NCBI GenBank assembly: GCA_964016885.1
Contig: OZ024754.1
Location: 12,276,001 to 12,340,000, forward strand
DNA from: Eledone cirrhosa
Taxonomy: Eukaryota
Length of the DNA stretch: 64,000 nt
Reading direction: 5' to 3'
Numbering within the stretch: the stretch's first letter is position 1; each line of letters begins with the position of its first letter. Positions 873-56,081 of this stretch are shown here, piece after piece. A program made the position numbers and the translations under genes. The notes below the pieces were generated by a model that was not told the origin of the DNA, did no database searches, and worked only from the letters and a program-made list of their open reading frames with translations.

Positions 873-1184
873 GATATAATGGAAAACGAAAAATCAGTGA
901 TGCATCTGAACTCAATTTATTGTGTGTTACAAGTGTTTCCCCGGCGAACAGCTCGAGGTGCGATCTGTGTGTGGATCGACCTGACTCTACACTCACAGGT
1001 TCCTCGGACATGTCTATTGATTTCGGAGCAAGAGGTAATGCTCCGAAATCAATAGACGTGTCCGAGGAACATGTGAGTCTAGAGTCAGGTCGATCCACCT
1101 CGAGCTGTTCGCCGGGGAAACACTTGTAACACACAATAAATTGAGTTCAGATGCATCACTGATTTTTCGTTTTCCATTCTATAT
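873..1184. repeat. Fold-back palindrome (arms about 150 bp, 8-nt loop at 1031-1038) carrying degenerate hammerhead motifs with extended stem II
   Basis: 873-1030 is the reverse complement of 1039-1184, apart from a few substitutions and an internal deletion in the right arm. Right arm reads GTGT-CCGAGGA...GAAA-CACTTG-TA-ACAC. Confidence 0.85.
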
Positions 1185-1436
1185 CTATCTATATATATAT
1201 ATATATGTATATATATATAATTAAGTTAAAGTGTACATCTACATATGTATACGGAAGTATTAGTATGCATATAAATACACACATGTATACATATGTACAT
1301 GTACTGAGTTTTTCACTAGACACTTTACAGTGAGTGTCAGCTAGTCTGTATGTAACCACACAGACGGACCGGGTTTTAGAGTCATACGAGTTTTCAAGGA
1401 AACACATTTCCTCTATTCTCCAGAGAGCCAGACAGG

Positions 1437-1481
1437 AATATTGGACTAGTTTCGATGTTATTACATCTCATCAGCAATATT
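1437..1481 (-). ncRNA. Minimal type I hammerhead ribozyme (canonical core)
   Basis: Minus strand AATATTG-CTGATGA-GATGT(AATA)ACATC-GAA-ACTAGT-C^CAATATT: 7-bp stem I, intact CUGAUGA/GAAA core, 5-bp stem II, palindromic stem III ACUAGU, GUC cleavage triplet. Confidence 0.88.
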
Positions 1482-1899
1482 TACCCATCTTCCGGCTTCT
1501 CTGGAGAATTGTAAAAGCACATATCGTTATATGCTTTTTCTATGAAAATTAGTAGTGGGTAGACTAATTTGCATAGAACGTGAGTCATTGTACGCACCGG
1601 TTCAGCGGAAACGATAAAAACAAATAACGAAACGAAATTAAATTTCGTTTCGCTTCTAACTCACTTTTGTATGACTGACGCTTAAACAATTAAGTTAAAG
1701 TGTACATCTACATAAGTATACGGAAGTATTAGTATGCATATAAATACACCCATGTATATATATGTACTGAGTTTTTCACTAGACACTTTACAGTGAGTGT
1801 CAGCTAGTCTGTATGTAACCACACAGACGGACCGGGTTTTAGAGTCATACGAGTTTTCAAGGAAACACATTTCCTCTATTCTCCAGAGAGCCAGACAGG

Positions 1900-1944
1900 A
1901 ATATTGGACTAGTTTCGATGTTATTACATCTCATCAGCAATATT
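1900..1944 (-). ncRNA. Minimal type I hammerhead ribozyme, identical second copy
   Basis: Same sequence as 1437-1481, offset by 463 bp. Confidence 0.88.
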
Positions 1945-2422
1945 TACCCATCTTCCGGCTTCTCTGGAGAATATATATATATATATATGTATACATATAT
2001 GTATATATATGTATATATATATATATATGTATATATATATGTATGTATATATATATATATATATATATAACAAAGGAAATGTGGTAAGGAACCATATGGA
2101 CCAAAGTACGCACCAAAGTACTCAATACTTAGGGTAGTAGAGTAGGTAATAGGAACAAGTATGACCCCGACGGCAGAGCTCAAGCCGTTTCGACGATATA
2201 TATATATGTAGAAGTTCTATTTAAATTGTTGGGATACAACAAGCAAATATTTTTATAACTGATATAAAGCACTCAACAAATAATTGGAGTAAAAATACGA
2301 TATTAACAAATGGAAACTATATTTATAAAACCATATTTATTTCATTATACATATTTCAACAGTAATGGTTGCATTCTTTAAGGGTATGTCAATATTTATT
2401 TATAAAACTGCTCTATATTATA

Positions 2423-4676: not shown

Positions 4677-4739
4677 ATTTTATTATATATATTTCAAGGG
4701 CAACCAAGGCAGTTTTGGTGCAATTTCATCAGATAAAAT
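4677..4739 (-). ncRNA. Minimal hammerhead motif in the left arm of a palindrome
   Basis: Minus strand ATTTTAT-CTGATGA-(imperfect stem II)-GAA-ATATATAT-A^ATAAAAT. Confidence 0.6.
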
Positions 4740-4918
4740 ACAAAATTTGTTTTATAAATGTTGACACACCCTTAGAAAAACAACCTTGACCTAGAAATAC
4801 AACCTTCAACCATCAAGGTTGTTTTTCTAAGGGTATGTCAACATTTATAAAACAAATTTTGTATTTTATCTGATGAAATTGCACCAAAACTGCCTTGGTT
4901 GCCCTTGAAATATATATA
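4684..4918. repeat. Fold-back palindrome (arms 4684-4789 and 4813-4918)
   Basis: Near-perfect reverse-complement arms with a 23-nt spacer. The right arm ends in (TA)n. Confidence 0.9.
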
Positions 4919-8045: not shown

Positions 8046-10560
8046 ATCATCATCATCATCATCATCATCAGGTTTAGCGTCCGTGTTCCACGCTTGCATG
8101 GGTTTGGACGGGGGTTTTCCCACTTGAGGCAAGAGTGGTTGTCTTGCTCGCATAGGACTGTCTGGCGGGTTTTCTACAGTTGGATGCCCTTCCTAACACC
8201 AACCACATTTACAGTGTGGGGCTGGGAGGTTTTTACTGTGTTGCCTACACGGCCACATTTACAGCGTGGACTGTGTGTTTTTTGTCGTGACACCTACACG
8301 ATCTCATTTGTTTCGGCCTGGATGTTGTGGGACCAACATAACTTTACATTGAAAGGGGCGGTGTGGGTGGGGTGGAGGTGGTGGGACGGGGGTGTGTTTT
8401 GATAGAGATGCCTACTGACTGTAGTAGGTTTTTACTTTGTATTTAGGTAAGGCGGGTCTTCTCTATTACTGAGTACCGCCAAAGGTCTCGGTCCAGTGAC
8501 ATTGTCTTGGAGAGGTGTAAGCGTGTGAGGTCGGAATTTATCAGCTCGTCCCATGTTTTTCTGGGTCTGCCTACTCCGTGGCTACCGTCTATCTTTATTG
8601 CCCTGCACTTTGTTATACAGCTGTCGTCTTTCATGCGCATCACGTGACCGTACCAACGTAGCCTTCTCTCGAGTAAACAACATCTGATCCCTCTTATTTC
8701 TAATTTTTTCCTTAGTTCGTTTATGCTTTGCCGTTCACGTATATTACTATTGCACATCCAGCGGAGCATGCAAGCTTCGTTCCTCTCTAGTCTGCGTATA
8801 TCCTCTGCACACAATGCCCAGGTCTCACTGCCATGCAGCATTGCTGTTCGTATGCAGGCATCGTATAACCTGCCTTTCATTTTTAGGGAGAACCCTCTAG
8901 CGGCTAATAGTGGTATAAGCTCTCTGAACTTTTTCCATCCAGTTCTGACTCTAGCTACTGTACTTTCAGAGCACCCTCCCCCACTGCTGATTTTGTCACC
9001 CAGATAACGGAAGCTGTCCACTATTTCTATAGAACCCTCTGCGCAGTTGAAGGAGCTAGTATTTTGTGGGCACTTGCTGCTACTTATTGCACCAGAGCAC
9101 CGGCCACATGTAAAATCTATGTTCTTAGTTAGCTTACCTGTGATCCCACTACATCTTTTATGCACCCATACTTTGCATTTGGGACATAAAATGGAGTTTC
9201 TACCTACGCCTTTCCTACACACTGAGCATGGCCATTTCCCCGATGGGACCGCCGCCTTATTTTCTTTCCTACAAACTAGAACTTTAGTCTTAGCCAGGTT
9301 AATTTTAAGGCCTTTTGATTCTAGGCCGTGCTTCCACGTTTGGAATTTCTTCTCTAGTTCGGTCATTGATTCAGCTATGAGCGTTAGATCATCTGCGTAT
9401 AGGAGTTCCCATGGGCAGCCGGTCTTGAACTCCTCTGTTATAGCCTGAAGGGCAATAATAAATAGTAGGGGGCTAAGAACAGAGCCCTGATGGACACCAA
9501 CTTTTACGCTAAACTCTTCACTATATTCGTTGTTAATTCTAACCTTACTGACTGTTTCTTTATACATGGCTTGTATAGCTCTCACAAGCCATTCGTCAAC
9601 ACCTAGTTTTCTAAGAGACCACCAGATAATGGAACGGGGGACTCTGTCGAAGGCTTTCTCCAAGTCGACGAAAGCTAAGTATAGGGGTTTACTTTTAGCT
9701 AGGTACTTCTCCTGTAGTTGTCGTACAATGAAAAGAGCGTCTGTGGTACTTTTACCTGACACAAACCCGAACTGCATTTCATCTAGATCAATTCTCTCTC
9801 TTAGTTGCGCTATTACTTTTTCCGTGACCTTCATGACCTGGTCGATTAATTTAATGCCTCTATAGTTACTCCTATCTAGGGCATCTCCTTTTCCCTTATA
9901 GCAGTTAACGATGATGCTGCTACGCCATTCCTTCGGAACAACCCCATTCTGTACGACTTGGTTAACTATCCGGGTGACCATGGTGTGTCCCACCGAACCA
10001 GATGCCTTCAGCATCTCAGCAACTATTTCCGAAGGCCCAGCCGCCTTACCCGTCTTCATATCTTTGATTGCCTTACTTATTATACTACCTTCAACTAACA
10101 CTGCTGGTCCCTCTATTGGATCGATCTGGGGGAGACTGTCTTTCTCCCATTTGTTCTCCTCATTTAGAAGCCTTTCGTAGTGACACTTCCAAGCTACCTT
10201 CTTATCAGCGTCGGTGATGGCAAGTATGCCATCATCGTTAAGTACACACTTCTCCCCGACAATATCACGGTTTTCCTTGACACATTGCCTGGCAATCCTG
10301 AACACCTCACGTTTTTGGTCCTCACGTTGTAGAACATGCTTGAACTTTCTTTCCTCTGCTTCCCTTCTTGCGAAGTACACTTGTCTCCTAGCTTCCCTCC
10401 TGGCCACTTGATAGTCTTCTCTACTTCCCCCATCCCGCCATACTTTCCAAGCCTGCTTTTTGGCCTTAATTGACTCCTCCACCTTACTGTTCCACCACCA
10501 TGTTACTCTCCTCCTACCTACAGGCCTGCTCCAGCCACAGACTTCGTCTGCCGCCATCAT
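8046..10560 (-). mobile_element. 5'-truncated RTE-type non-LTR retrotransposon with 3' UTR and (TGA)n tail
   Basis: Uninterrupted RT ORF, no endonuclease domain, about 370-bp 3' UTR ending in (TGA)n. Confidence 0.92.
8443..10560 (-). CDS. Reverse transcriptase (RTE-type) with embedded PHD-like zinc finger; N-terminally truncated
   Basis: Motifs NYRGIKL, QFGF, DLEKAFDRV, GVHQGSVLSPLLF, LYADD, FRYLG, LRWYGHV, GRPRKTW. Insert CSVC...CPKC..WVHKRC...CGRC is C4HC3. The start ATG arises at the truncation junction. Confidence 0.9.
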   Translation of the reverse strand: MMAADEVCGWSRPVGRRRVTWWWNSKVEESIKAKKQAWKVWRDGGSREDYQVARREARRQVYFARREAEERKFKHVLQREDQKREVFRIARQCVKENRDIVGEKCVLNDDGILAITDADKKVAWKCHYERLLNEENKWEKDSLPQIDPIEGPAVLVEGSIISKAIKDMKTGKAAGPSEIVAEMLKASGSVGHTMVTRIVNQVVQNGVVPKEWRSSIIVNCYKGKGDALDRSNYRGIKLIDQVMKVTEKVIAQLRERIDLDEMQFGFVSGKSTTDALFIVRQLQEKYLAKSKPLYLAFVDLEKAFDRVPRSIIWWSLRKLGVDEWLVRAIQAMYKETVSKVRINNEYSEEFSVKVGVHQGSVLSPLLFIIALQAITEEFKTGCPWELLYADDLTLIAESMTELEKKFQTWKHGLESKGLKINLAKTKVLVCRKENKAAVPSGKWPCSVCRKGVGRNSILCPKCKVWVHKRCSGITGKLTKNIDFTCGRCSGAISSSKCPQNTSSFNCAEGSIEIVDSFRYLGDKISSGGGCSESTVARVRTGWKKFRELIPLLAARGFSLKMKGRLYDACIRTAMLHGSETWALCAEDIRRLERNEACMLRWMCNSNIRERQSINELRKKLEIRGIRCCLLERRLRWYGHVMRMKDDSCITKCRAIKIDGSHGVGRPRKTWDELINSDLTRLHLSKTMSLDRDLWRYSVIEKTRLT

Positions 10561-12307
10561 ATATATATATAATTACACATATATAAATAATTATATATAT
10601 ATATAATTACACATATATAAATAATTATATATATATATAATTACACATATATAAATAATTATATATATATATAATTACACATATATAAATAATTATATAT
10701 ATATATAATTACACATATATAAATAATTATATATATATATAATTACACATATATATATATATAATTACACACACATATATATAATTACACATATATGTAT
10801 ATAATTACACATATATAAATAATTATATATATATAATTACACATATATATATATATATATAATTACACATATATGTATATAATTACACATATATAAATAA
10901 TTATATATATATATAATTACACATATATATATATATATAATTACACATATATATATATATATAATTACACATATATGTATATAATTACACATATATAAAT
11001 AATTATATATATATATAATTACACATATATAAATAATTATATATATATATAATTACACATATATAAATAATTATATATATATATAATTACACATATATAA
11101 ATAATTATATATATATATAATTACACATATATAAATAATTATATATATATATAATTACACATATATAAATAATTATATATATATATAATTACACATATAT
11201 AAATAATTATATATATATATAATTACACATATATAAATAATTATATATATATATAATTACACATATATAAATAATTATATATATATATATATATAATTAC
11301 ACATATATAAATAATTATATATATATATAATTACACATATATAAATAATTATATATATATATAATTACACATATATAAATAATTATATATATATATAATT
11401 ACACATATATAAATAATTATATATATATATAATTACACATATATAAATAATTATATATATATATATATATAATTACACATATATAAATAATTATATATAT
11501 ATATAATTACACATATATAAATAATTATATATATATATAATTACACATATATAAATAATTATATATATATATAATTACACATATATAAATAATTATATAT
11601 ATATATAATTACACATATATAAATAATTATATATATATATATAATTACACATATATAAATAATTATATATATATATAATTACACATATATAAATAATTAT
11701 ATATATATATAATTACACATATATAAATAATTATATATATATATAATTACACATATATAAATAATTATATATATATATAATTACACATATATAAATAATT
11801 ATATATATATATAATTACACATATATAAATAATTATATATATATATATAATTACACATATATAAATAATTATATATATATATAATTACACATATATATAT
11901 AATTATATATATATATAATTACACATAAATAATTATATATATATATAATTACACATATATATATAATTATATATATATATAATTACACATAAATAATTAT
12001 ATATATATATAATTACACATATATATACTAACTTACTAACATTTTTCTATTTCTATTTGACATTGCTCTCTCAGGCATAATCTTGTAACCTAGGAAACAA
12101 GATAATGGTGGGTGCAAGGGCCAACTGATATTAAAGATGTGATCAATAAGATACAACAACAACAACAACAACAGCAGCAGCAGCAGCAGCAACAACAACA
12201 ACAACAACAACAACAGCATCATAAGTGCTAGCAATAGTAGAAAGAGCATCAACAATAACAAGTTCTCTTTGAAATATTTGACCCAGGAAAATGTTTTCAA
12301 CTATGAA

Positions 12308-16192: not shown

Positions 16193-16469
16193 ACCCCAGT
16201 AGGAGGGGTTATATATATATATATAATCAGACCGATCTGTCATTGTACATTTCAGAAAATATCATATTTCATATATTTTCACTAGCTCTAACAGTTGGCA
16301 GGTAACAGTATACAGTACTGATGAAGGGTAATCACCCAGAAACATCAGTGACTGCCGTTCTGTTTACATACCAACACAAGAGCCAGAATGATGGGGTCAT
16401 TCTACTGACATGGCTTTAAAGAGGCTCTTTGCATAATTGCAAACAAATCGAATATTATTATTAATGAAT

Positions 16470-24766: not shown

Positions 24767-25553
24767 ACTGTTTCTATAATTCCATTAGGAGTTACAGATC
24801 CATACATACAAACATACATACATATACACATACATACATACAACTAGTCAGGAAATTACAAGTACAATCCATTAATGGCACAGTAAAAATATGTAAAATA
24901 TTCCAAAAATTCTGCATCTATTAACTGCATATACACATGTACAGATACAAAGCATATGCACATGCACACATACAACTCAAAACATCCACATCCACACATA
25001 CAATAACATCCATACCTGCACACACATGCATGCATACAGACATGCATACATATCTACCTAGTTGATGTTGTGTAAATTCCAATGAGAGAGTCTTGTGTCT
25101 ATGTTAGAAACTGACTCTCTCTCTATTGGTAAAAATTTGTGAAATTATAAAACCAGAAGAACATACACTCATACATACACATACACACACACACACATAC
25201 ATACACACACACACATACATATACACATACATACATACGTACATATATACCAACATACCTACATATAGACATACATACATACATTCATACATACATATAG
25301 ACATACATACTTAAATATATGTACACACTCTATATTTGTGTAATTTGCCTAAAGGCATAACTTGTCTCTACCTGTTTTGTTATGTCTCAATTCAGACTGG
25401 AATGAAAGGTATCGACCTTAATGCACAGAAAACGTAGTGATTTGAAGAGGTTGGCTGAGGAGTTGGGATTTAAGAAATATATTAGTTTAACACTTGATAA
25501 CAAAGCAAAAACGATGAAAAATGAATAAAGAAAAAAAATAGAAACTCACTCAC

Positions 25554-25791
25554 CTAATAACGGCTGGACCTGTACCAAGATCAAAACGGAATTCCAGATG
25601 ACCCCCACTCATCGCCAACATGAGGAAATCACCTTTACGGTCAAGTGTGTAACCATTGTAAAGAATTAGTCCATCTAATGAAGTTGGTTTGATAATCATT
25701 TCAACTTCAGTGAAGGAAAGTGTGGTTCGGTGAAGCCCATGATATTTCAGGAATGAATGACCATTGAAACTGGGAACATGTAAACTGGAAT
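25554..25791 (-). CDS. Internal exon (238 bp, phase 1-2) encoding the N-terminal half of a laminin G domain of the same gene
   Basis: Acceptor ttattacAG|AT and donor AG|GTGAGT. Translation SSLHVPSFNGHSFLKYHGLHRTTLSFTEVEMIIKPTSLDGLILYNGYTLDRKGDFLMLAMSGGHLEFRFDLGTGPAVIR has the LamG motifs (PSFNG, DGLILYNG, GDF, EFRFDLGxGPAVIR) typical of agrin/pikachurin/EYS. Not present in the ORF track. Confidence 0.92.
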
Positions 25792-26280
25792 CTGTAATAA
25801 AAATGATGAATTATCCATAATAATTCTCTCCGTGTGTTTATATAATTATATATCCATCTCCAATCCTCATGTACCTCCATCATCCTATCCCCCAGTCCAC
25901 ACTGTAAAGTGGTTGTGTTGGTGTCACAATAAAAAGCACCCAGACCACACTGTAAATGTGGCTGGCATTAGGAAAGGCATCCAGCCATAGAAACCAAGCC
26001 GAAATCAGTTCTGTATGAGCAAGACATGGTCACCTGATCTGGCTTGTCTCACAATAGGACAACTCGTGTAACCCATTCTAGTGTGGTAAAATGGACGTGC
26101 GATGGTGATGGTCTCTGTCTGTAACTCTTTATACAATTTACACACAATACATTTCCTATCCCACTGCTTGGAATTTTGGGCAAATGTTCTACTATAGTCT
26201 TAAAGAATGTCTTATAATGTCTCATAATGTATTATGAGTGAATTTGGGAGACAGAAACTATAAAAAAAGACCGTTGATAA

Positions 26281-39061: not shown

Positions 39062-42000
39062 CTACAGGCTGAGGTAGAGAGAAGGCCCATTCACACGGGC
39101 CATTCTCGCAACTTTCACCCATCTTTCATAAAACTGGCTGGAGTGGAGCACCTCTCTCTCCATCCTGATCCTTCTTCCGAAATGGTATCGGAAGAAAAGG
39201 ACCAGTTGTTGGCCGGAGAGAAAGGTGTCCGACCTCAGCCCTTTCAGACGCGTCCACCATATAGCCTCTTTTACCATGGCTATTACACAGAGGAAGACCG
39301 CCTCTCCTTCATTTTTGAAGGGGGGAGGCGGCTTGATCGTTACAATGGACTCGGTGGTCAACCTAATTGGTCCCACCCGTGACAACAGTCGTTCGACATA
39401 GCCCCACAGATCGGCAACGCCCGGGCAGTGCACCAATGCGTGCGCGACGGTTTCCTCGTCGCGCACGCATCTGGGACAGATCTTTTTCGAGGGGTCCCTA
39501 CCCGGGCGCCCGTGTCTGTAGAGCTTATCCCGAACGGGCAGAGCCCCTCGGTAGCACTGCCAGGCCAAGGACTTCTGGAAGTTGTCCATAGGTCCCGGGC
39601 CGAAAGTCCTACCGAATAGACTGGCCAGTTCGTCCTCCTCCATGCCTAGGGCTTCTCCGAGGGCGTCGTCGCACCCGCTAACCACCAGCCCTCTATAGAA
39701 TGACGAGGTGGAGTCTCCGTCGATAGCCGGGTCCGCCTGCCAGAGAGCCGTGAGCGCCTGGGCACACTCGGTGTGCCAGTCGCCCAGTTTTCTCGGTCTT
39801 TGCTTCACCCAGGACTGCAGCTCGGTGAGCGAGACGAGCCTCGGGAAGGCTCGCCTCACAAACGGGGCCCACACCGGTTGACCGGTGAGGAATACGTGGA
39901 GGTGCCTTAGCCTCAATGCGTGTTTACGCATTTTTAGCCACGGCATCCCCAGCCCTCCTTTCAAAGGGTGTTGACAGCAGATGGATCTCCTCACCAGAGG
40001 AGACCTCTTCTTCCAAAGGAAATAAAAGAGGGCGCGCTCCATTTTGGCGAGGATCTCACCCGGGCAAGGCACGACAGTCAAGCGGTAATAGATGACGGAC
40101 GCTATGTAAGCGTTCGCCACCTCCGCCCGACCTTTTAGGGATAGTTTGCACTCGGCCCACTTCTGGGTCAGTGCAAACACCCTATTCGTCACCTCACCCC
40201 AGTTTTTCTCCACCTGGAGGTCCGGTCCGAACCAGACCCCAAGCAACTTCACCGGGCCCTCCGTCCACCGTCCGACGATACCGTCGCACGACATCGCTTT
40301 GCCCCTCCACTCGCCGAGTTGCAAAGCGACTGACTTGTCCCGGTTCAGCTTAGCCCCTGTCAACCTTTCGTACTCCTCTAGTAAGGTGCCGATCGCCTCG
40401 ATTTCAGAGGCGGTCGACACCATTACTGTTACGTCATCGGCGTAGGCCGACACCGCTTTGCGCAATCCCGGTTCCAAAGGGATGCCCTGCAACAACTCCA
40501 ACTTCCGCAGTAATGGCTCGAGAGTCAACACATACAGAAGGGAGGAGAGAGGGCACCCCTGTCGGATGGAGCGGGTGATTTCGAACGGCTCCGAAAGGTA
40601 GCCGTTCACCTTGACTCTAGAGCAGATGCGGCTGCTGTGTATGGCAGTGATCCAGCCCCTGAAAACGGGTCCGAACCCAGCCGCCGCTAGCACCGCATCC
40701 AGGTAACCATGGTCCACCCTATCGAACGCTTTAGACTGATCTAAATTTATCAGGGCCCCACCAAAGCCGGGTTCGTTCCCAACCCTCTCTATGATGTATC
40801 GCATGAGGTGGAGGTTGTCGTGGATGGACCTGGACGGGATAGCGCATGTCTGCGCATCTCCCACCAGGCCCCCCACGACAAGCGCCAACCTCTTCGCTAA
40901 CACCTTCGCCAAAATCTTTAACTCTGCATTTAGCAGAGTTATGGGCCTAAAATTACTAATGTCATCCCCCTTGTTCTCGTCCTTCCTCACTAGCGAGACT
41001 ACGCCCTTGGTCACAGAACAGGGAATTCTCCTGTTCTGTTGCCAGTTGCAGTAGACCGCCTCGAGGAGATCGGGGAACAAGTCCGGCATATTAATATATA
41101 GTTCGTAGGGCAGACCATCGAGTCCTGGAGATTTGCGTTTGCCGCATAGGCTCAGCACGTCCCCTATTTCAGCCGCTGAGATCGGCCCGTCGCAGGACCT
41201 CGCCTCCCTGTCCGAAAGACGCGGCAGGCCGTCGAGGTATGGACCGAAATCCACATCTCCAACCGGCTCCCCGCCCCTCCCGAACAATTGGGCAAAGTGC
41301 CTTTGAAAGGCTTCGCACATTTGCTTAGGTTCAAGGATCAGCCGTCCATCCTGGTCTCGCAAAGACCGGATAGTGGATTTAATCCCACTTTTCGCTTCTG
41401 TCACGCGGGCCCAGCTAACAGCTTTGGTCCCCTCGTTTCCCAGAGCACGTATTTTGCTTCGGACAACGCAGCCTTCGTGTTTCGCGTCGAAGAACTGGTT
41501 CAAGACCGTTCTCGACGCTTGCACTCTGGCCACGTTGCCGCTTCTCATTGCCTCTTCAACATTAACTACCAACTCCCTTTCCTTCCTATTTCTATCTGAG
41601 GCTAACTCCTTACTAACTCCTATTGAAACTACTCTAATCTCTCTTTTTAGAGAGCCCCACCACCTGTTGTTGACGATGGCGCCCGTCAACTGCTCCTTAA
41701 CTAAGGTTCTAATCCGGTCCCTGTAAGCTCTACTTGCCGGTAAGGACAAGTTGAGCTTCCAGTAACCGGGCCCCTGCCTATGCGTTCTATCAAGGTGGAC
41801 TACGCAGGTCACTAACTTGTGGTCTGAATAGCCCACCATGAGCATTTCTGGACAACTTAAAAAGTCCCTATCCTTAATTCTAACTAAGAACCTATCTAGG
41901 TACGATCTAGATTGACCACTGTTATTTGACCAGGTCCAGGTTGGTACAGTCGGAAAATCTAGTCGGTATCTATCGGCCAGGTCGAATCGGCCGATTAACC

Positions 42001-42499
42001 CCTTAAGGCTGTTACACCCCCCTCTATCGGGACATGCCCCTACATAGTCCCAACGTGCATCTAGGATACCATTCCAGTCCCCCACTAAAAGCAAGGAGCG
42101 GGACGTCCCTAGAAAAGTCTCCAGACGATGGAAGAAGTCCGACCGCATTGCCCCAAAAGGGGCGTATACGGCGACAAGCCTAAAAGTTTCGCCTTCGCCA
42201 TTGCCAAGGTCCAGAACCACGAGTCGACCCTCCGGGTCCAAGTGTACCGTCTGTGTAGCGAGACCCAGATGTTTTTGCAGCAGAACGACAACCCCACCCC
42301 CACCTCCGGGCTGACAGAGAGATGCGTGCATCTCAAAGTCATCAAAGGTGGGGGTTAGCTGTCGCATGCTGCTGATCCGGGCCTCGCAAATAACCATCAC
42401 ATTTACACATTGTGACCTGAGGTCACTTAGAAGTTTAGCTTGCTTCCAAGGTGAGCCCAGGCCACGCGCATTTAGACAACCCACTCTTAAGACAGCCAT
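39062..42499 (-). CDS. ORF2: AP endonuclease + reverse transcriptase + C-terminal zinc finger
   Basis: CLNARGL, GDWN, YLDR, SDH; SPGLDG, FRPITLLN, DQSKAFDRV, RQGCPLS, YADD; CPRC..ET..HAL.HC. 1145 aa uninterrupted. Confidence 0.95.
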   Translation of the reverse strand: MAVLRVGCLNARGLGSPWKQAKLLSDLRSQCVNVMVICEARISSMRQLTPTFDDFEMHASLCQPGGGGGVVVLLQKHLGLATQTVHLDPEGRLVVLDLGNGEGETFRLVAVYAPFGAMRSDFFHRLETFLGTSRSLLLVGDWNGILDARWDYVGACPDRGGCNSLKGLIGRFDLADRYRLDFPTVPTWTWSNNSGQSRSYLDRFLVRIKDRDFLSCPEMLMVGYSDHKLVTCVVHLDRTHRQGPGYWKLNLSLPASRAYRDRIRTLVKEQLTGAIVNNRWWGSLKREIRVVSIGVSKELASDRNRKERELVVNVEEAMRSGNVARVQASRTVLNQFFDAKHEGCVVRSKIRALGNEGTKAVSWARVTEAKSGIKSTIRSLRDQDGRLILEPKQMCEAFQRHFAQLFGRGGEPVGDVDFGPYLDGLPRLSDREARSCDGPISAAEIGDVLSLCGKRKSPGLDGLPYELYINMPDLFPDLLEAVYCNWQQNRRIPCSVTKGVVSLVRKDENKGDDISNFRPITLLNAELKILAKVLAKRLALVVGGLVGDAQTCAIPSRSIHDNLHLMRYIIERVGNEPGFGGALINLDQSKAFDRVDHGYLDAVLAAAGFGPVFRGWITAIHSSRICSRVKVNGYLSEPFEITRSIRQGCPLSSLLYVLTLEPLLRKLELLQGIPLEPGLRKAVSAYADDVTVMVSTASEIEAIGTLLEEYERLTGAKLNRDKSVALQLGEWRGKAMSCDGIVGRWTEGPVKLLGVWFGPDLQVEKNWGEVTNRVFALTQKWAECKLSLKGRAEVANAYIASVIYYRLTVVPCPGEILAKMERALFYFLWKKRSPLVRRSICCQHPLKGGLGMPWLKMRKHALRLRHLHVFLTGQPVWAPFVRRAFPRLVSLTELQSWVKQRPRKLGDWHTECAQALTALWQADPAIDGDSTSSFYRGLVVSGCDDALGEALGMEEDELASLFGRTFGPGPMDNFQKSLAWQCYRGALPVRDKLYRHGRPGRDPSKKICPRCVRDEETVAHALVHCPGVADLWGYVERLLSRVGPIRLTTESIVTIKPPPPFKNEGEAVFLCVIAMVKEAIWWTRLKGLRSDTFLSGQQLVLFFRYHFGRRIRMEREVLHSSQFYERWVKVARMARVNGPSLYLSL

Positions 42500-42522
42500 G
42501 TTGGTGGCAAAGAAAGAGGCAC

Positions 42523-44283
42523 TTACCTCTCTGCGTCCCGGGGTTCGGGTCGCTCAGTTTCCATGGGGCTGGTGGCGGGGTTGATGGGTGGGGTGGTGGT
42601 TTGTGGTGGTGTGGGGGTATTGGTGTGTGGAGGGGTTGGGATCTTTGGAGTTGTGTGGGTGTTTGAGGAGGGGAGGGGAAAACCTTTCAGGAGGACGCGG
42701 TTGAGTGGCCTGGTGCAGGGTGGGCCCACGTCCTCAGGGTACATGTCTTTTAAAGTTTTAAAAATGTCAAGTGGGATTTTCACCATTTTCAGGTTAGGGA
42801 GCCCCATTGCCGTTACGAAATTCGGCCCTTCGGTTTGTATCGAAGGGTTGGTTTCTATTTTTAAAGTTAGGTTTTCATTGTTTTTGTTTATGTATGTGTA
42901 GAGTTTTTGTGTTGTTGTGTTTGTTTTTGCTTGTTGTTGTTGAGTGAGTTTGCGTTTTATTGTCTGTGTTGTGTTGTCAGGTGGGGTTATTTTTGTTGTT
43001 GTGGTGTGTGTACGTTTTTTTCTTTTCACTTTTTGGAAGGGAGCCCCCTCGTCTTCCGACGATATGAGCTCCTCTTCCGTATTGGAGGGGAGGGGTATAT
43101 CTCCGGGTTGTGTATGAACTGTTTTTGTATTTGTGTTCTGTGGGGTGGGGCTGGGTGGGACCGTGTTTTGGGTTGTTTTCTTGAGCTGTTGTTGATGTTG
43201 TTGTTGTTGTGGTGGTGGTGGTGGTGGTGGTGTTGTTGGTTTTTGTTGTTCTGGTGGAGATGGTAGTGTATTTTGTTGTTTTTGTGATGGTGGTGCTGGT
43301 TGTTTTTGTTGTTGTTGTGGTGTTTGTAGCAGTGGTTTTTTAGTTGTTAGTAGAGGGCAGGCCGTCCTCAGGTGACCTCTGCCAGCGCAGTGGTAACATG
43401 AGGGTCTCCTGCCTTCCACTGTGATATTTATGTAGGTTCGCCCATCCAGTAGCACTCGGTCGGGTATTCCGGAGATTCTCTCAGGTGTCATCTGTAAGAG
43501 AACCTCCAGACTTTTCCCCCCGAACAGTCCACTGGTGGACTCCCCTGCTGAAATTAGTATGTCCTTATCTAGGTCGGTAAATCCTGTTAGGACGGACCAG
43601 ATGTTAATTTCTGGCGTAGGGCTCCACATTCTTATCCTTTGTGTTCTTCTTCCTTTATATGTGGGGAAGAAGGTGTAATGTGGTGACACTATAGGTGCCA
43701 CCGAATATTTCTGAGCCAGCATTTCGTCCTTCATTCGGACCATAATGCTGGCATACAGCTTTCCTCTTTGAATAAAGAGTATGTCATTTTTAATTTCTTT
43801 CAGAACCAGCTCGATTTGACTTTCGGTCAATTGCGCTGGCTTTCTCGTTTCGTTGGTTATGGTTCTGTAGCTTACGGTATTCTTGTAAATCTGTTCACGC
43901 ACTTCTTCTGGGGAGTTGATCGTAAAAGAACCATCCTCCCCAAAAGATACGTATTTTCTAGCCTCTAGCAAATTTTCCTTGGCGTTCGTGATGTCAATGG
44001 CTTTGTACTCCGTGGCTCTCTTGAGTGTTTGGGCAAAAGAAATTTTGTCTTTGTTTGTTGTTGTAATGTTGTTGGTTTCCTTATTTGTGGTGTTATTTTT
44101 TTCTTGAAAATTAATTTTTTCATTTGAATTGAAATTCTTTTTTTCATTGGAGAGGAGGGGTTGTTCAACAGTTTGAACTGTTGTTCCCTCTTTCCCGCTT
44201 GTTTTTTTGGTCGGCGTGGCGTTCGCTTCCAATATGGCGATATCGTTTTCGACGATATCGTTATCAACGATATCGATAAACAT
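42523..44283 (-). CDS. ORF1 gag-like nucleic acid-binding protein
   Basis: 586 aa with zinc knuckle CYHCAGRGHLRTAC (CX2CX4HX4C), positioned upstream of ORF2. Confidence 0.85.
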   Translation of the reverse strand: MFIDIVDNDIVENDIAILEANATPTKKTSGKEGTTVQTVEQPLLSNEKKNFNSNEKINFQEKNNTTNKETNNITTTNKDKISFAQTLKRATEYKAIDITNAKENLLEARKYVSFGEDGSFTINSPEEVREQIYKNTVSYRTITNETRKPAQLTESQIELVLKEIKNDILFIQRGKLYASIMVRMKDEMLAQKYSVAPIVSPHYTFFPTYKGRRTQRIRMWSPTPEINIWSVLTGFTDLDKDILISAGESTSGLFGGKSLEVLLQMTPERISGIPDRVLLDGRTYINITVEGRRPSCYHCAGRGHLRTACPLLTTKKPLLQTPQQQQKQPAPPSQKQQNTLPSPPEQQKPTTPPPPPPPQQQQHQQQLKKTTQNTVPPSPTPQNTNTKTVHTQPGDIPLPSNTEEELISSEDEGAPFQKVKRKKRTHTTTTKITPPDNTTQTIKRKLTQQQQAKTNTTTQKLYTYINKNNENLTLKIETNPSIQTEGPNFVTAMGLPNLKMVKIPLDIFKTLKDMYPEDVGPPCTRPLNRVLLKGFPLPSSNTHTTPKIPTPPHTNTPTPPQTTTPPINPATSPMETERPEPRDAER

Positions 44284-44458
44284 TTCTCAAATATCTATTT
44301 TTCACCCCAAAAGGGGTGAAAATATATTTACCCGACGTCTAGAGTCCCAGACTAGGGGTTACAGTTAATTATACAAAATAATTCAAAAAAATCCACTCAC
44401 AAAATTAGCAGGTAAAAATCCAAATCACAGAGCGATATGACACACGTCTACTATCCTC

Positions 44459-55657: not shown

Positions 55658-56081
55658 CTTTATACTTTCACTCGTGTAGGACACCTTGGTTATTTTTCAT
55701 TTTGTAAAAAAACCTCCCTTTCTGTGTCCAGTGAAAAGCTCGGTACATGTACATATGTATACGTGTGTGTATTTATATGCATACTAGTATTTCAGTATAC
55801 ATATGTGGATGTACACTTTTAACTTAATTGTTTAAGCGTCAGTCATACAAAAGTGAGTTACAAACGAAACAAAATTTAATTTCGTTTCGTTATTTGTTTT
55901 TATATATATATATATATATATATAAATAAAATTAGTCCTTCATCAGTGATCTTCCAACCCTCATTGGTATTTCTTTGCATTAAAGATCATATATGGTGCG
56001 AGCAATAACTAAAAAAAAGTTATTGGGACACGTAAAATAGGGGGAAGCGAGCGAGACATGTAAACAAACATATATACATAT

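Follow-up and report, generated by a model that had tools for sequence, protein, structure and literature searches.

Metazoan non-LTR retrozymes have been described as dispersed tandem arrays of low-GC, non-coding units of 150-450 nt that carry a type I hammerhead ribozyme and whose predicted circular RNA is highly paired (PMC7229834). That 2020 study proposed Penelope-like elements as mobilisers; its main text mentions no cephalopod host, and its account of mobility as given there does not describe a tail or a two-armed insertion. A preprint on vertebrate retrozymes, with units of 51-972 nt, comes to the same conclusion, treating them as non-autonomous Penelope-like derivatives on the basis of co-occurrence and of pLTR homology in Xenopus; the sampling it sets out does not take in molluscs, and it ascribes arrays to unequal crossing-over (bioRxiv 10.64898/2026.07.22.740005). 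The retrozyme-Penelope link was thus proposed in 2020 and gained support from homology in this 2026 preprint. For Penelope-like elements themselves, work on Poseidon_Ac of the anole indicates that reverse transcription starts at two internal RNA sites, that the stretch between them becomes the genomic tail, and that both target strands are cut and extended by a protein for which a dimer is predicted (PMC11167929). The traits given for Penelope-like elements also include a bias for (TA)n, an inverted copy truncated at its 5' end and a tail that is present at one end (PMC8557442). Among cephalopods, the repeat annotation of Octopus vulgaris records active Penelope-like families, and the word 'ribozyme' is absent from its main text (PMC13282606). 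In the literature searched we found no report of cephalopod retrozymes or retrozyme tails; the supplements of hammerhead surveys may list these motifs.

The locus examined here lies in a 64,000-nt stretch of the Eledone cirrhosa genome (the window). That the minus strand carries two identical type I hammerheads, 463 nt apart, was confirmed by inspection of the sequence. CUGAUGA stands at 1937 in one and at 1474 in the other, and both include GAAA, a stem II of 5 bp, the GUC cut site and the palindrome ACUAGU. The features referred to below are as follows, in window coordinates unless a locus is named.

1219..1972, minus strand: the insertion in its entirety, a single arm that holds 1.6 retrozyme units, is truncated on its 5' side and has its 3' end at site E1
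1878..1972, minus strand: hammerhead copy 1, whose extended stem I has 29 bp; the core motif spans 1900-1944 and the cut is predicted after C1907
1415..1509, minus strand: hammerhead copy 2, identical to copy 1; core motif 1437-1481, predicted cut after C1444
1444..1906, minus strand: predicted monomer of 463 nt, 36% GC, 70% paired when folded as a circle
1614..1687, minus strand: 74-nt 'tail' between the fixed family ends E1 (1688) and E2 (1614)
1626-1652, minus strand: 13-bp hairpin inside the 74-nt tail
1541..1575, minus strand: hairpin also present in family B, which is ~70% identical; the octamer ATGCAAAT (1567-1574) lies in one of its arms
1183..1216, strand unassigned: (TA)n target, 3' side
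1973..2069, strand unassigned: (TA)n target, 5' side
25553..25810, minus strand: open frame, listed for context, that contains a LamG exon from the agrin/pikachurin-like host gene
L180:4283-4504 and L181:6223-9725 (G000:C14), minus strand: downstream EGF and LamG exons of the agrin/pikachurin-like gene

The two motifs, their identity and their spacing had all been read correctly in the initial annotation. Its label 'minimal' did not hold, however: that name (min-HHR) denotes the form without helix III or loop 3 (PMC4209133), and since both motifs have a 2-bp helix III closed by a 2-nt palindromic loop (UA), they are, by predicted pairing, of the 'canonical' metazoan type I form. Of the RNA that it expected to be released, given as 1444 to 1907, the length of 463 nt stood and the upper coordinate did not, the predicted monomer running from 1906 to 1444. 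As a hammerhead in Rfam the pair was recovered in part, both motifs matching Hammerhead_HH9 (RF02275) at 32.4 bits (E 3e-4) but missing its gathering score of 52. HH9 shares the type I layout with a long extended stem I, which around each ribozyme here is 29 bp (z = -5.3; equally stable shuffles 0/200), but is a conserved single-copy motif of amniote introns, whereas the motif described here is multi-copy and mobile. Matches of the locus to Rfam microRNAs fell below threshold and were artefacts of (TA)n and hairpins.

The window copy consists of an E1 arm alone, which breaks off at its 5' side where the ribozyme stem has its foot; the E1 end is at 1219, with TA microhomology extending to 1217. 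The two part-copies within 1219-1972 are separated by one six-nt indel and three substitutions, with the ribozyme free of them; the family unit is 469 nt, and a 6-nt deletion brings the window monomer to 463 nt. No open frame of at least 100 aa was found inside 1217-1972 and (TA)n flanks both sides, as expected of the non-coding, (TA)n-bounded partial tandem repeat first proposed. One arm of the hairpin at 1541..1575 holds an octamer, ATGCAAAT, that might act as an snRNA-type promoter element, as in newt satellite 2; the octamer-bearing hairpin pattern has 17,273 matches in the genome (control 0). Because the literature searched gave no confirmation of such a role, and because the octamer is base-paired in a conserved hairpin, we treat the promoter reading as a lead only. 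Adjoining the insertion, at 799-1182, is another back-to-back two-armed element (arms 874-960 and 1096-1182, 99% complementary), one arm of which continues for ~75 nt more before (TA)n, an extension that again resembles a tail. It is in the (TA)n end of this element that the retrozyme is located.

The insertion had been placed on the strand of a LamG gene and probably in an intron, and exons on both sides agree with this. Upstream there is a LamG exon at about 25.6-25.8 kb in the same orientation as the insertion, and downstream, 26-35 kb beyond the window start, come exons for EGF and LamG, again on that strand; because of these exons, which are those further out rather than the ones immediately flanking the insertion, the copy appears to sit in sense within an intron of the agrin/pikachurin-like gene.

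On every sequence feature tested, the family conforms to a metazoan non-LTR retrozyme. A complete type I hammerhead occurs in at least two consecutive units; the tandem unit of 463-469 nt, longer than in the 2020 set and within the range of the preprint, has 36% GC (retrozymes lie below 45-50%); no protein is encoded; the arrays are pure tandems, not an LTR pair around an internal part; and copies are dispersed over many loci. The retrozyme-like reading of the initial annotation was thus well founded. The element is real and of a known kind, with an unusually clean mechanistic footprint, and we have good confidence that it belongs to a young, non-coding, ~469-nt non-LTR retrozyme family likely copied into (TA)n by a Penelope-like reverse transcriptase-endonuclease.

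The family is multi-copy, as a genome count made clear: the exact 39-nt ribozyme motif occurs 1,376 times (reversed control 0), and a looser hammerhead pattern finds 23,413 motifs (control 0). A similarity search of the species' own 3.0-Gb genome found 867 candidate places; the 39 that were scored held 366 matches, in arrays of 469-nt units and with 92-100% identity among the matches listed. Seven subfamilies, at 87-97% identity, were distinguished among 69 loci with a full unit, and a more distant family B, with a 466-nt unit, aligns to the retrozyme unit at 68-76% in patches. The genome thereby gains more than 20,000 hammerheads of one type, some of them, the window copy included, lying in sense in introns. 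A 5'-truncated copy of a sister subfamily is also present in the window at ~55716-55902 (plus strand), ending at E2 in (TA)n and carrying no hammerhead.

Conservation of the stems is evident across subfamilies. Among 23 variants, picked to cover the subfamily groups out of 54 distinct ones, both partners have changed in 7/17 hammerhead pairs, and pairing is retained in 93.6% of cells (0/500 shuffles as high). Because the core is held invariant by the search pattern and the variants represent a few related subfamilies, this covariation shows a kept hammerhead fold rather than 23 independent events. The cut triplet across variants is GUC, GUU or GUA, and a GG-UA bulge seven pairs from the core is retained across families, which fits a need for loop contact. 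Among young copies, by contrast, private mutations fall in the core in 7/195 cases against 5.4 expected (sample 1, below), so that no signal of core conservation was seen there; because private mutations strike the core as often as elsewhere, daughter copies are without visible selection. The tail varies in 2/75 columns against 18-27% elsewhere in the unit, a low value that is partly forced, sample 2 having been picked by an exact match to the last 22 nt of the tail. A-to-I editing of an RNA intermediate was not supported: on the ribozyme strand, A>G changes number 8 against 3 T>C among 26 inherited variants (p = 0.14; L031-L069), and 21 against 22 among 195 private ones.

What is new relative to known retrozymes is the anatomy of the insertions, with a strict rule of one site per arm that is not seen in existing in vitro data. 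If numbering of the unit starts at 1688 and descends to 1219, family 3' ends sit at two sites. E1 is the unit end, where TA microhomology of a few nt is seen, and E2 lies 74 nt beyond it; most sampled loci consist of two 5'-truncated arms joined back to back (5' to 5'). In sample 1, the 39 best-scoring loci picked by a two-ribozyme query, 30/39 were two-armed and 9/39 single-armed; both ends were intact in 26/30 two-armed loci, every one of which paired E1 with E2 (26/26), and the other 4/30 had one broken end. Sample 2 comprised 40 E2-anchored loci taken consecutively along C1 (from the first 43 matches 41 were used, 2 being already in sample 1; L095/L096 are one duplicated locus, so that its pairs amount to 22 independent ones). 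Here the opposite arm ended at E1 in 23 loci and at E2 in none, was broken in 4 and ran off the fetched stretch in 1, while 12 loci were single-armed, 5/12 of these showing by eye a 10-20-nt inverted E1 remnant. No E1/E1 or E2/E2 combination was thus present among the 26 and 23 intact pairs of the two samples. The strict pairing indicates that the two starts are not drawn independently, one being used per target strand. Intact outer ends adjoin (TA)n in both samples, where a target-site duplication, which in metazoan non-LTR retrozymes exceeds 4 bp when present, would be masked by the (TA)n, and exact E2+(TA) junctions number 1,948 genome-wide (control 0). Family B, by our own reading of 18 fetched loci, has the same layout with a ~64-nt tail, in 5/5 contiguous two-armed loci with both ends intact.

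These end statistics bear on whether the arrays could be ordinary satellite DNA, spread by DNA-level recombination or as rolling-circle DNA, with the hammerhead a relic. Head-to-tail arrays of about 30 units do exist, and some show later homogenisation. Dispersed short arrays with two fixed 3' ends, scattered 5' ends, an inversion and (TA)n targeting are nevertheless marks of target-primed reverse transcription, by which the satellite reading is largely refuted; we consider it scarcely credible. Retrotransposition could alternatively have been driven by a LINE enzyme (RTE, CR1 or Tx1-like), with the inversions arising from twin priming. LINE reverse transcriptases are present in the window (8446-10572 and 39065-42553), and no Penelope partner with a sequence match emerged among 80 Penelope-type loci. 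Twin priming yields one fixed 3' end plus an inverted 5' part. It would not give a pair of outward-facing 3' ends, each at a fixed internal site of its own, and the family ends carry neither poly-A nor a repeat tail, which makes this origin very improbable.

A Penelope-like enzyme most likely made the insertions, because the two-site tail, the inverted 5'-truncated arm and the (TA)n bias match Penelope-like traits. Poseidon_Ac (PMC11167929) and Neptune/Naiad (PMC8557442), as reported, likewise have two internal starts from which a tail at one end results; they too show an inverted arm truncated at its 5' side, insert at AT or (TA)n targets and have a hammerhead upstream of the starts. The retrozyme differs from them in having no open frame, and thus no reverse transcriptase with GIY-YIG, and in its tail of 74 nt (64 in family B), compared with the 30-40 nt given in these two reports. 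Its strict E1/E2 pairing also differs from the in vitro results described for the anole enzyme, in which the start site did not vary between strands (PMC11167929). In contrast to the vertebrate case, evidence here comes from insertion anatomy, and no pLTR homology was found in the 80 Penelope-type loci.

The search for a partner covered these 80 loci with 1.5-kb flanks, namely 30 of an intact Neptune-like family, 20 of a second Penelope-like family and 30 GIY-YIG loci, the genome having 10,595 GIY-YIG candidates, of which 150 were scored. None of these three sets had sequence shared with the retrozyme unit or a matching hammerhead; the matches that were seen at Penelope-type loci are retrozymes inserted nearby. 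A genome search with the spacer only returned family copies alone. An intact Neptune-like element beside L082, considered as a partner, merely hosts a retrozyme in the (TA)n of its 3' region. The young Neptune-like element has a unit of about 4.8 kb with an intact 777-aa frame, in copies 98-99% identical (L110-L139, e.g. L115:4784-5044). Its 3' ends, which adjoin (TA)n and so share the TA targets of the retrozyme, fall at two sites separated by a 39-nt tail; no canonical hammerhead was found in the stretches fetched for it (L110-L139). The second young family has 713-aa frames (L158-L177), and one of these, in L160, is preceded by a hammerhead-like hairpin whose core is non-standard. Clade names such as Neptune-like are presumptive, assigned by us from sequence motifs and PMC8557442.

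Cleavage had been envisaged through a double hammerhead, working best as a dimer through the palindromic stem III. In the predicted lowest-energy fold of the two-copy RNA (-258.2 kcal/mol), the core C-U-G is paired with the palindrome (pair probabilities of 0.68-0.86), an inactive state. A nested double hammerhead is possible at a predicted -253.7 kcal/mol, 4.5 kcal/mol higher, but requires two 29-bp stems to swap partners, and the strand-swapped pairs have probability 0.00 in the ensemble; modelling thus disfavours it. Most invertebrate retrozyme hammerheads are reported to cleave efficiently without need of a dimer (PMC7229834), and 8/9 Xenopus retrozyme dimers gave no cleavage in vitro in the preprint (bioRxiv 10.64898/2026.07.22.740005). 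It seems unlikely that a double hammerhead forms through ACUAGU at the two-copy locus and that this locus is in its own right a notable source of a 463-nt circle: although the palindrome is present and the locus lies in sense in an intron, closure of each 29-bp stem is possible while the second copy is still to be transcribed, and the locus is an ordinary 5'-truncated daughter copy among thousands, with its own private mutations. Monomer cleavage aided by the long stem I is the route that we prefer on the predicted folds.

The arms also inform on the RNA that was copied. The cut lies 225 nt upstream of E1 and 299 nt upstream of E2, so that no arm made from a cut linear monomer could exceed these lengths. 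In sample 1, whose two-ribozyme query shapes this count, 66/69 arms span a cut site, and 5' ends fall within 240-252 of the unit (the cut being after 245) in 1/69 and 2/66 arms, about as a uniform spread gives. Because arms cross the cut site and 5' ends do not pile up there, the template was thus circular or uncleaved, not a cut monomer.

Variants within loci point both ways between these two forms. Full units are identical in L059 (8/8), L083 (10/10) and L094 (6/6); L083, L094 and L099 are identical-unit arrays with haplotypes of their own, 3 differences from the nearest sampled locus, and locus-level variants are often common to both arms (L047, L050, L055, L064, L068), which would favour a one-unit bottleneck with rolling copying. 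Elsewhere, variants present in only some units are in register between arms (L034, L048, L102) or periodic (L041, L073), which would favour heterogeneous multimers or later recombination over a single monomer circle. Both circular and multimeric templates probably occur, and we lean slightly towards a circle having served for at least part of the insertions.

The sequence of events that we envisage begins with transcription of arrays, the window copy being transcribed at least as part of the host intron. The GUC sites would then be cut by the hammerheads, which likely act as monomers with the aid of the long stem I and a loop contact, and the monomer so released would be circularised by a host ligase. 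A borrowed Penelope-like enzyme would nick both strands of (TA)n, with one cDNA primed from E1 and the other from E2; these cDNAs would cross unit junctions on circular or uncleaved multimeric RNA, stop at random and be joined 5' to 5', the window copy having kept its E1 arm only. More specifically, and tentatively, we suggest that a pair of Penelope-like enzymes grips the circular ribozyme RNA at the two fixed sites and rolls from both starts, a proposal to which we give a little short of an even chance.

Penelope-driven insertion might instead always have used an uncleaved linear multimer, with the hammerhead a slow or protein-dependent passenger, the circle irrelevant and the long arrays grown later by unequal crossing-over. 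The in-register and periodic variants fit this account, as does the lowest-energy fold, which locks the core to the palindrome; for the anole element, moreover, insertion is reported to proceed without need of hammerhead cleavage, unprocessed RNA being the main in vitro substrate (PMC11167929). Against it, the identical-unit, own-haplotype arrays need a one-unit bottleneck and re-expansion, the stems covary across subfamilies, and coral, mussel and axolotl retrozymes are described as abundant circles (PMC7229834). We regard it as possible, if on the whole doubtful. Should rolling from a circular template be correct, the thousands of two-armed E1/E2 arrays would be a genomic record of circular-RNA-templated retrotransposition in an animal. 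With two starts mapped to within a few bases, a known target and a 469-nt non-coding substrate, the family offers a tool for studying the mobility of animal retrozymes and the origin of Penelope-like tails and inverted arms, and with intact young Penelope-like families in the same genome, circular and linear templates can be compared directly.

Other elements in the window include the LINE reverse transcriptase frames at 8446-10572 and 39065-44286 (both minus strand), one with a PHD finger; the other LINE has an endonuclease, reverse transcriptase and zf-RVT, plus an upstream frame. A second hammerhead-like family, with a long stem II and GAAAUAUGUA-type ends, occurs at 2429, 4065, 4692/4870 and 20303, with a decayed copy at 2949, and forms an inverted pair at 4684-4789 and 4813-4918. 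Further hammerhead-like motifs, in other repeat families, were seen at 16318-16342 (plus strand), 19805/19995 and 4953. In total, the window contains 21 matches to the hammerhead core pattern, compared with 2.55 expected.
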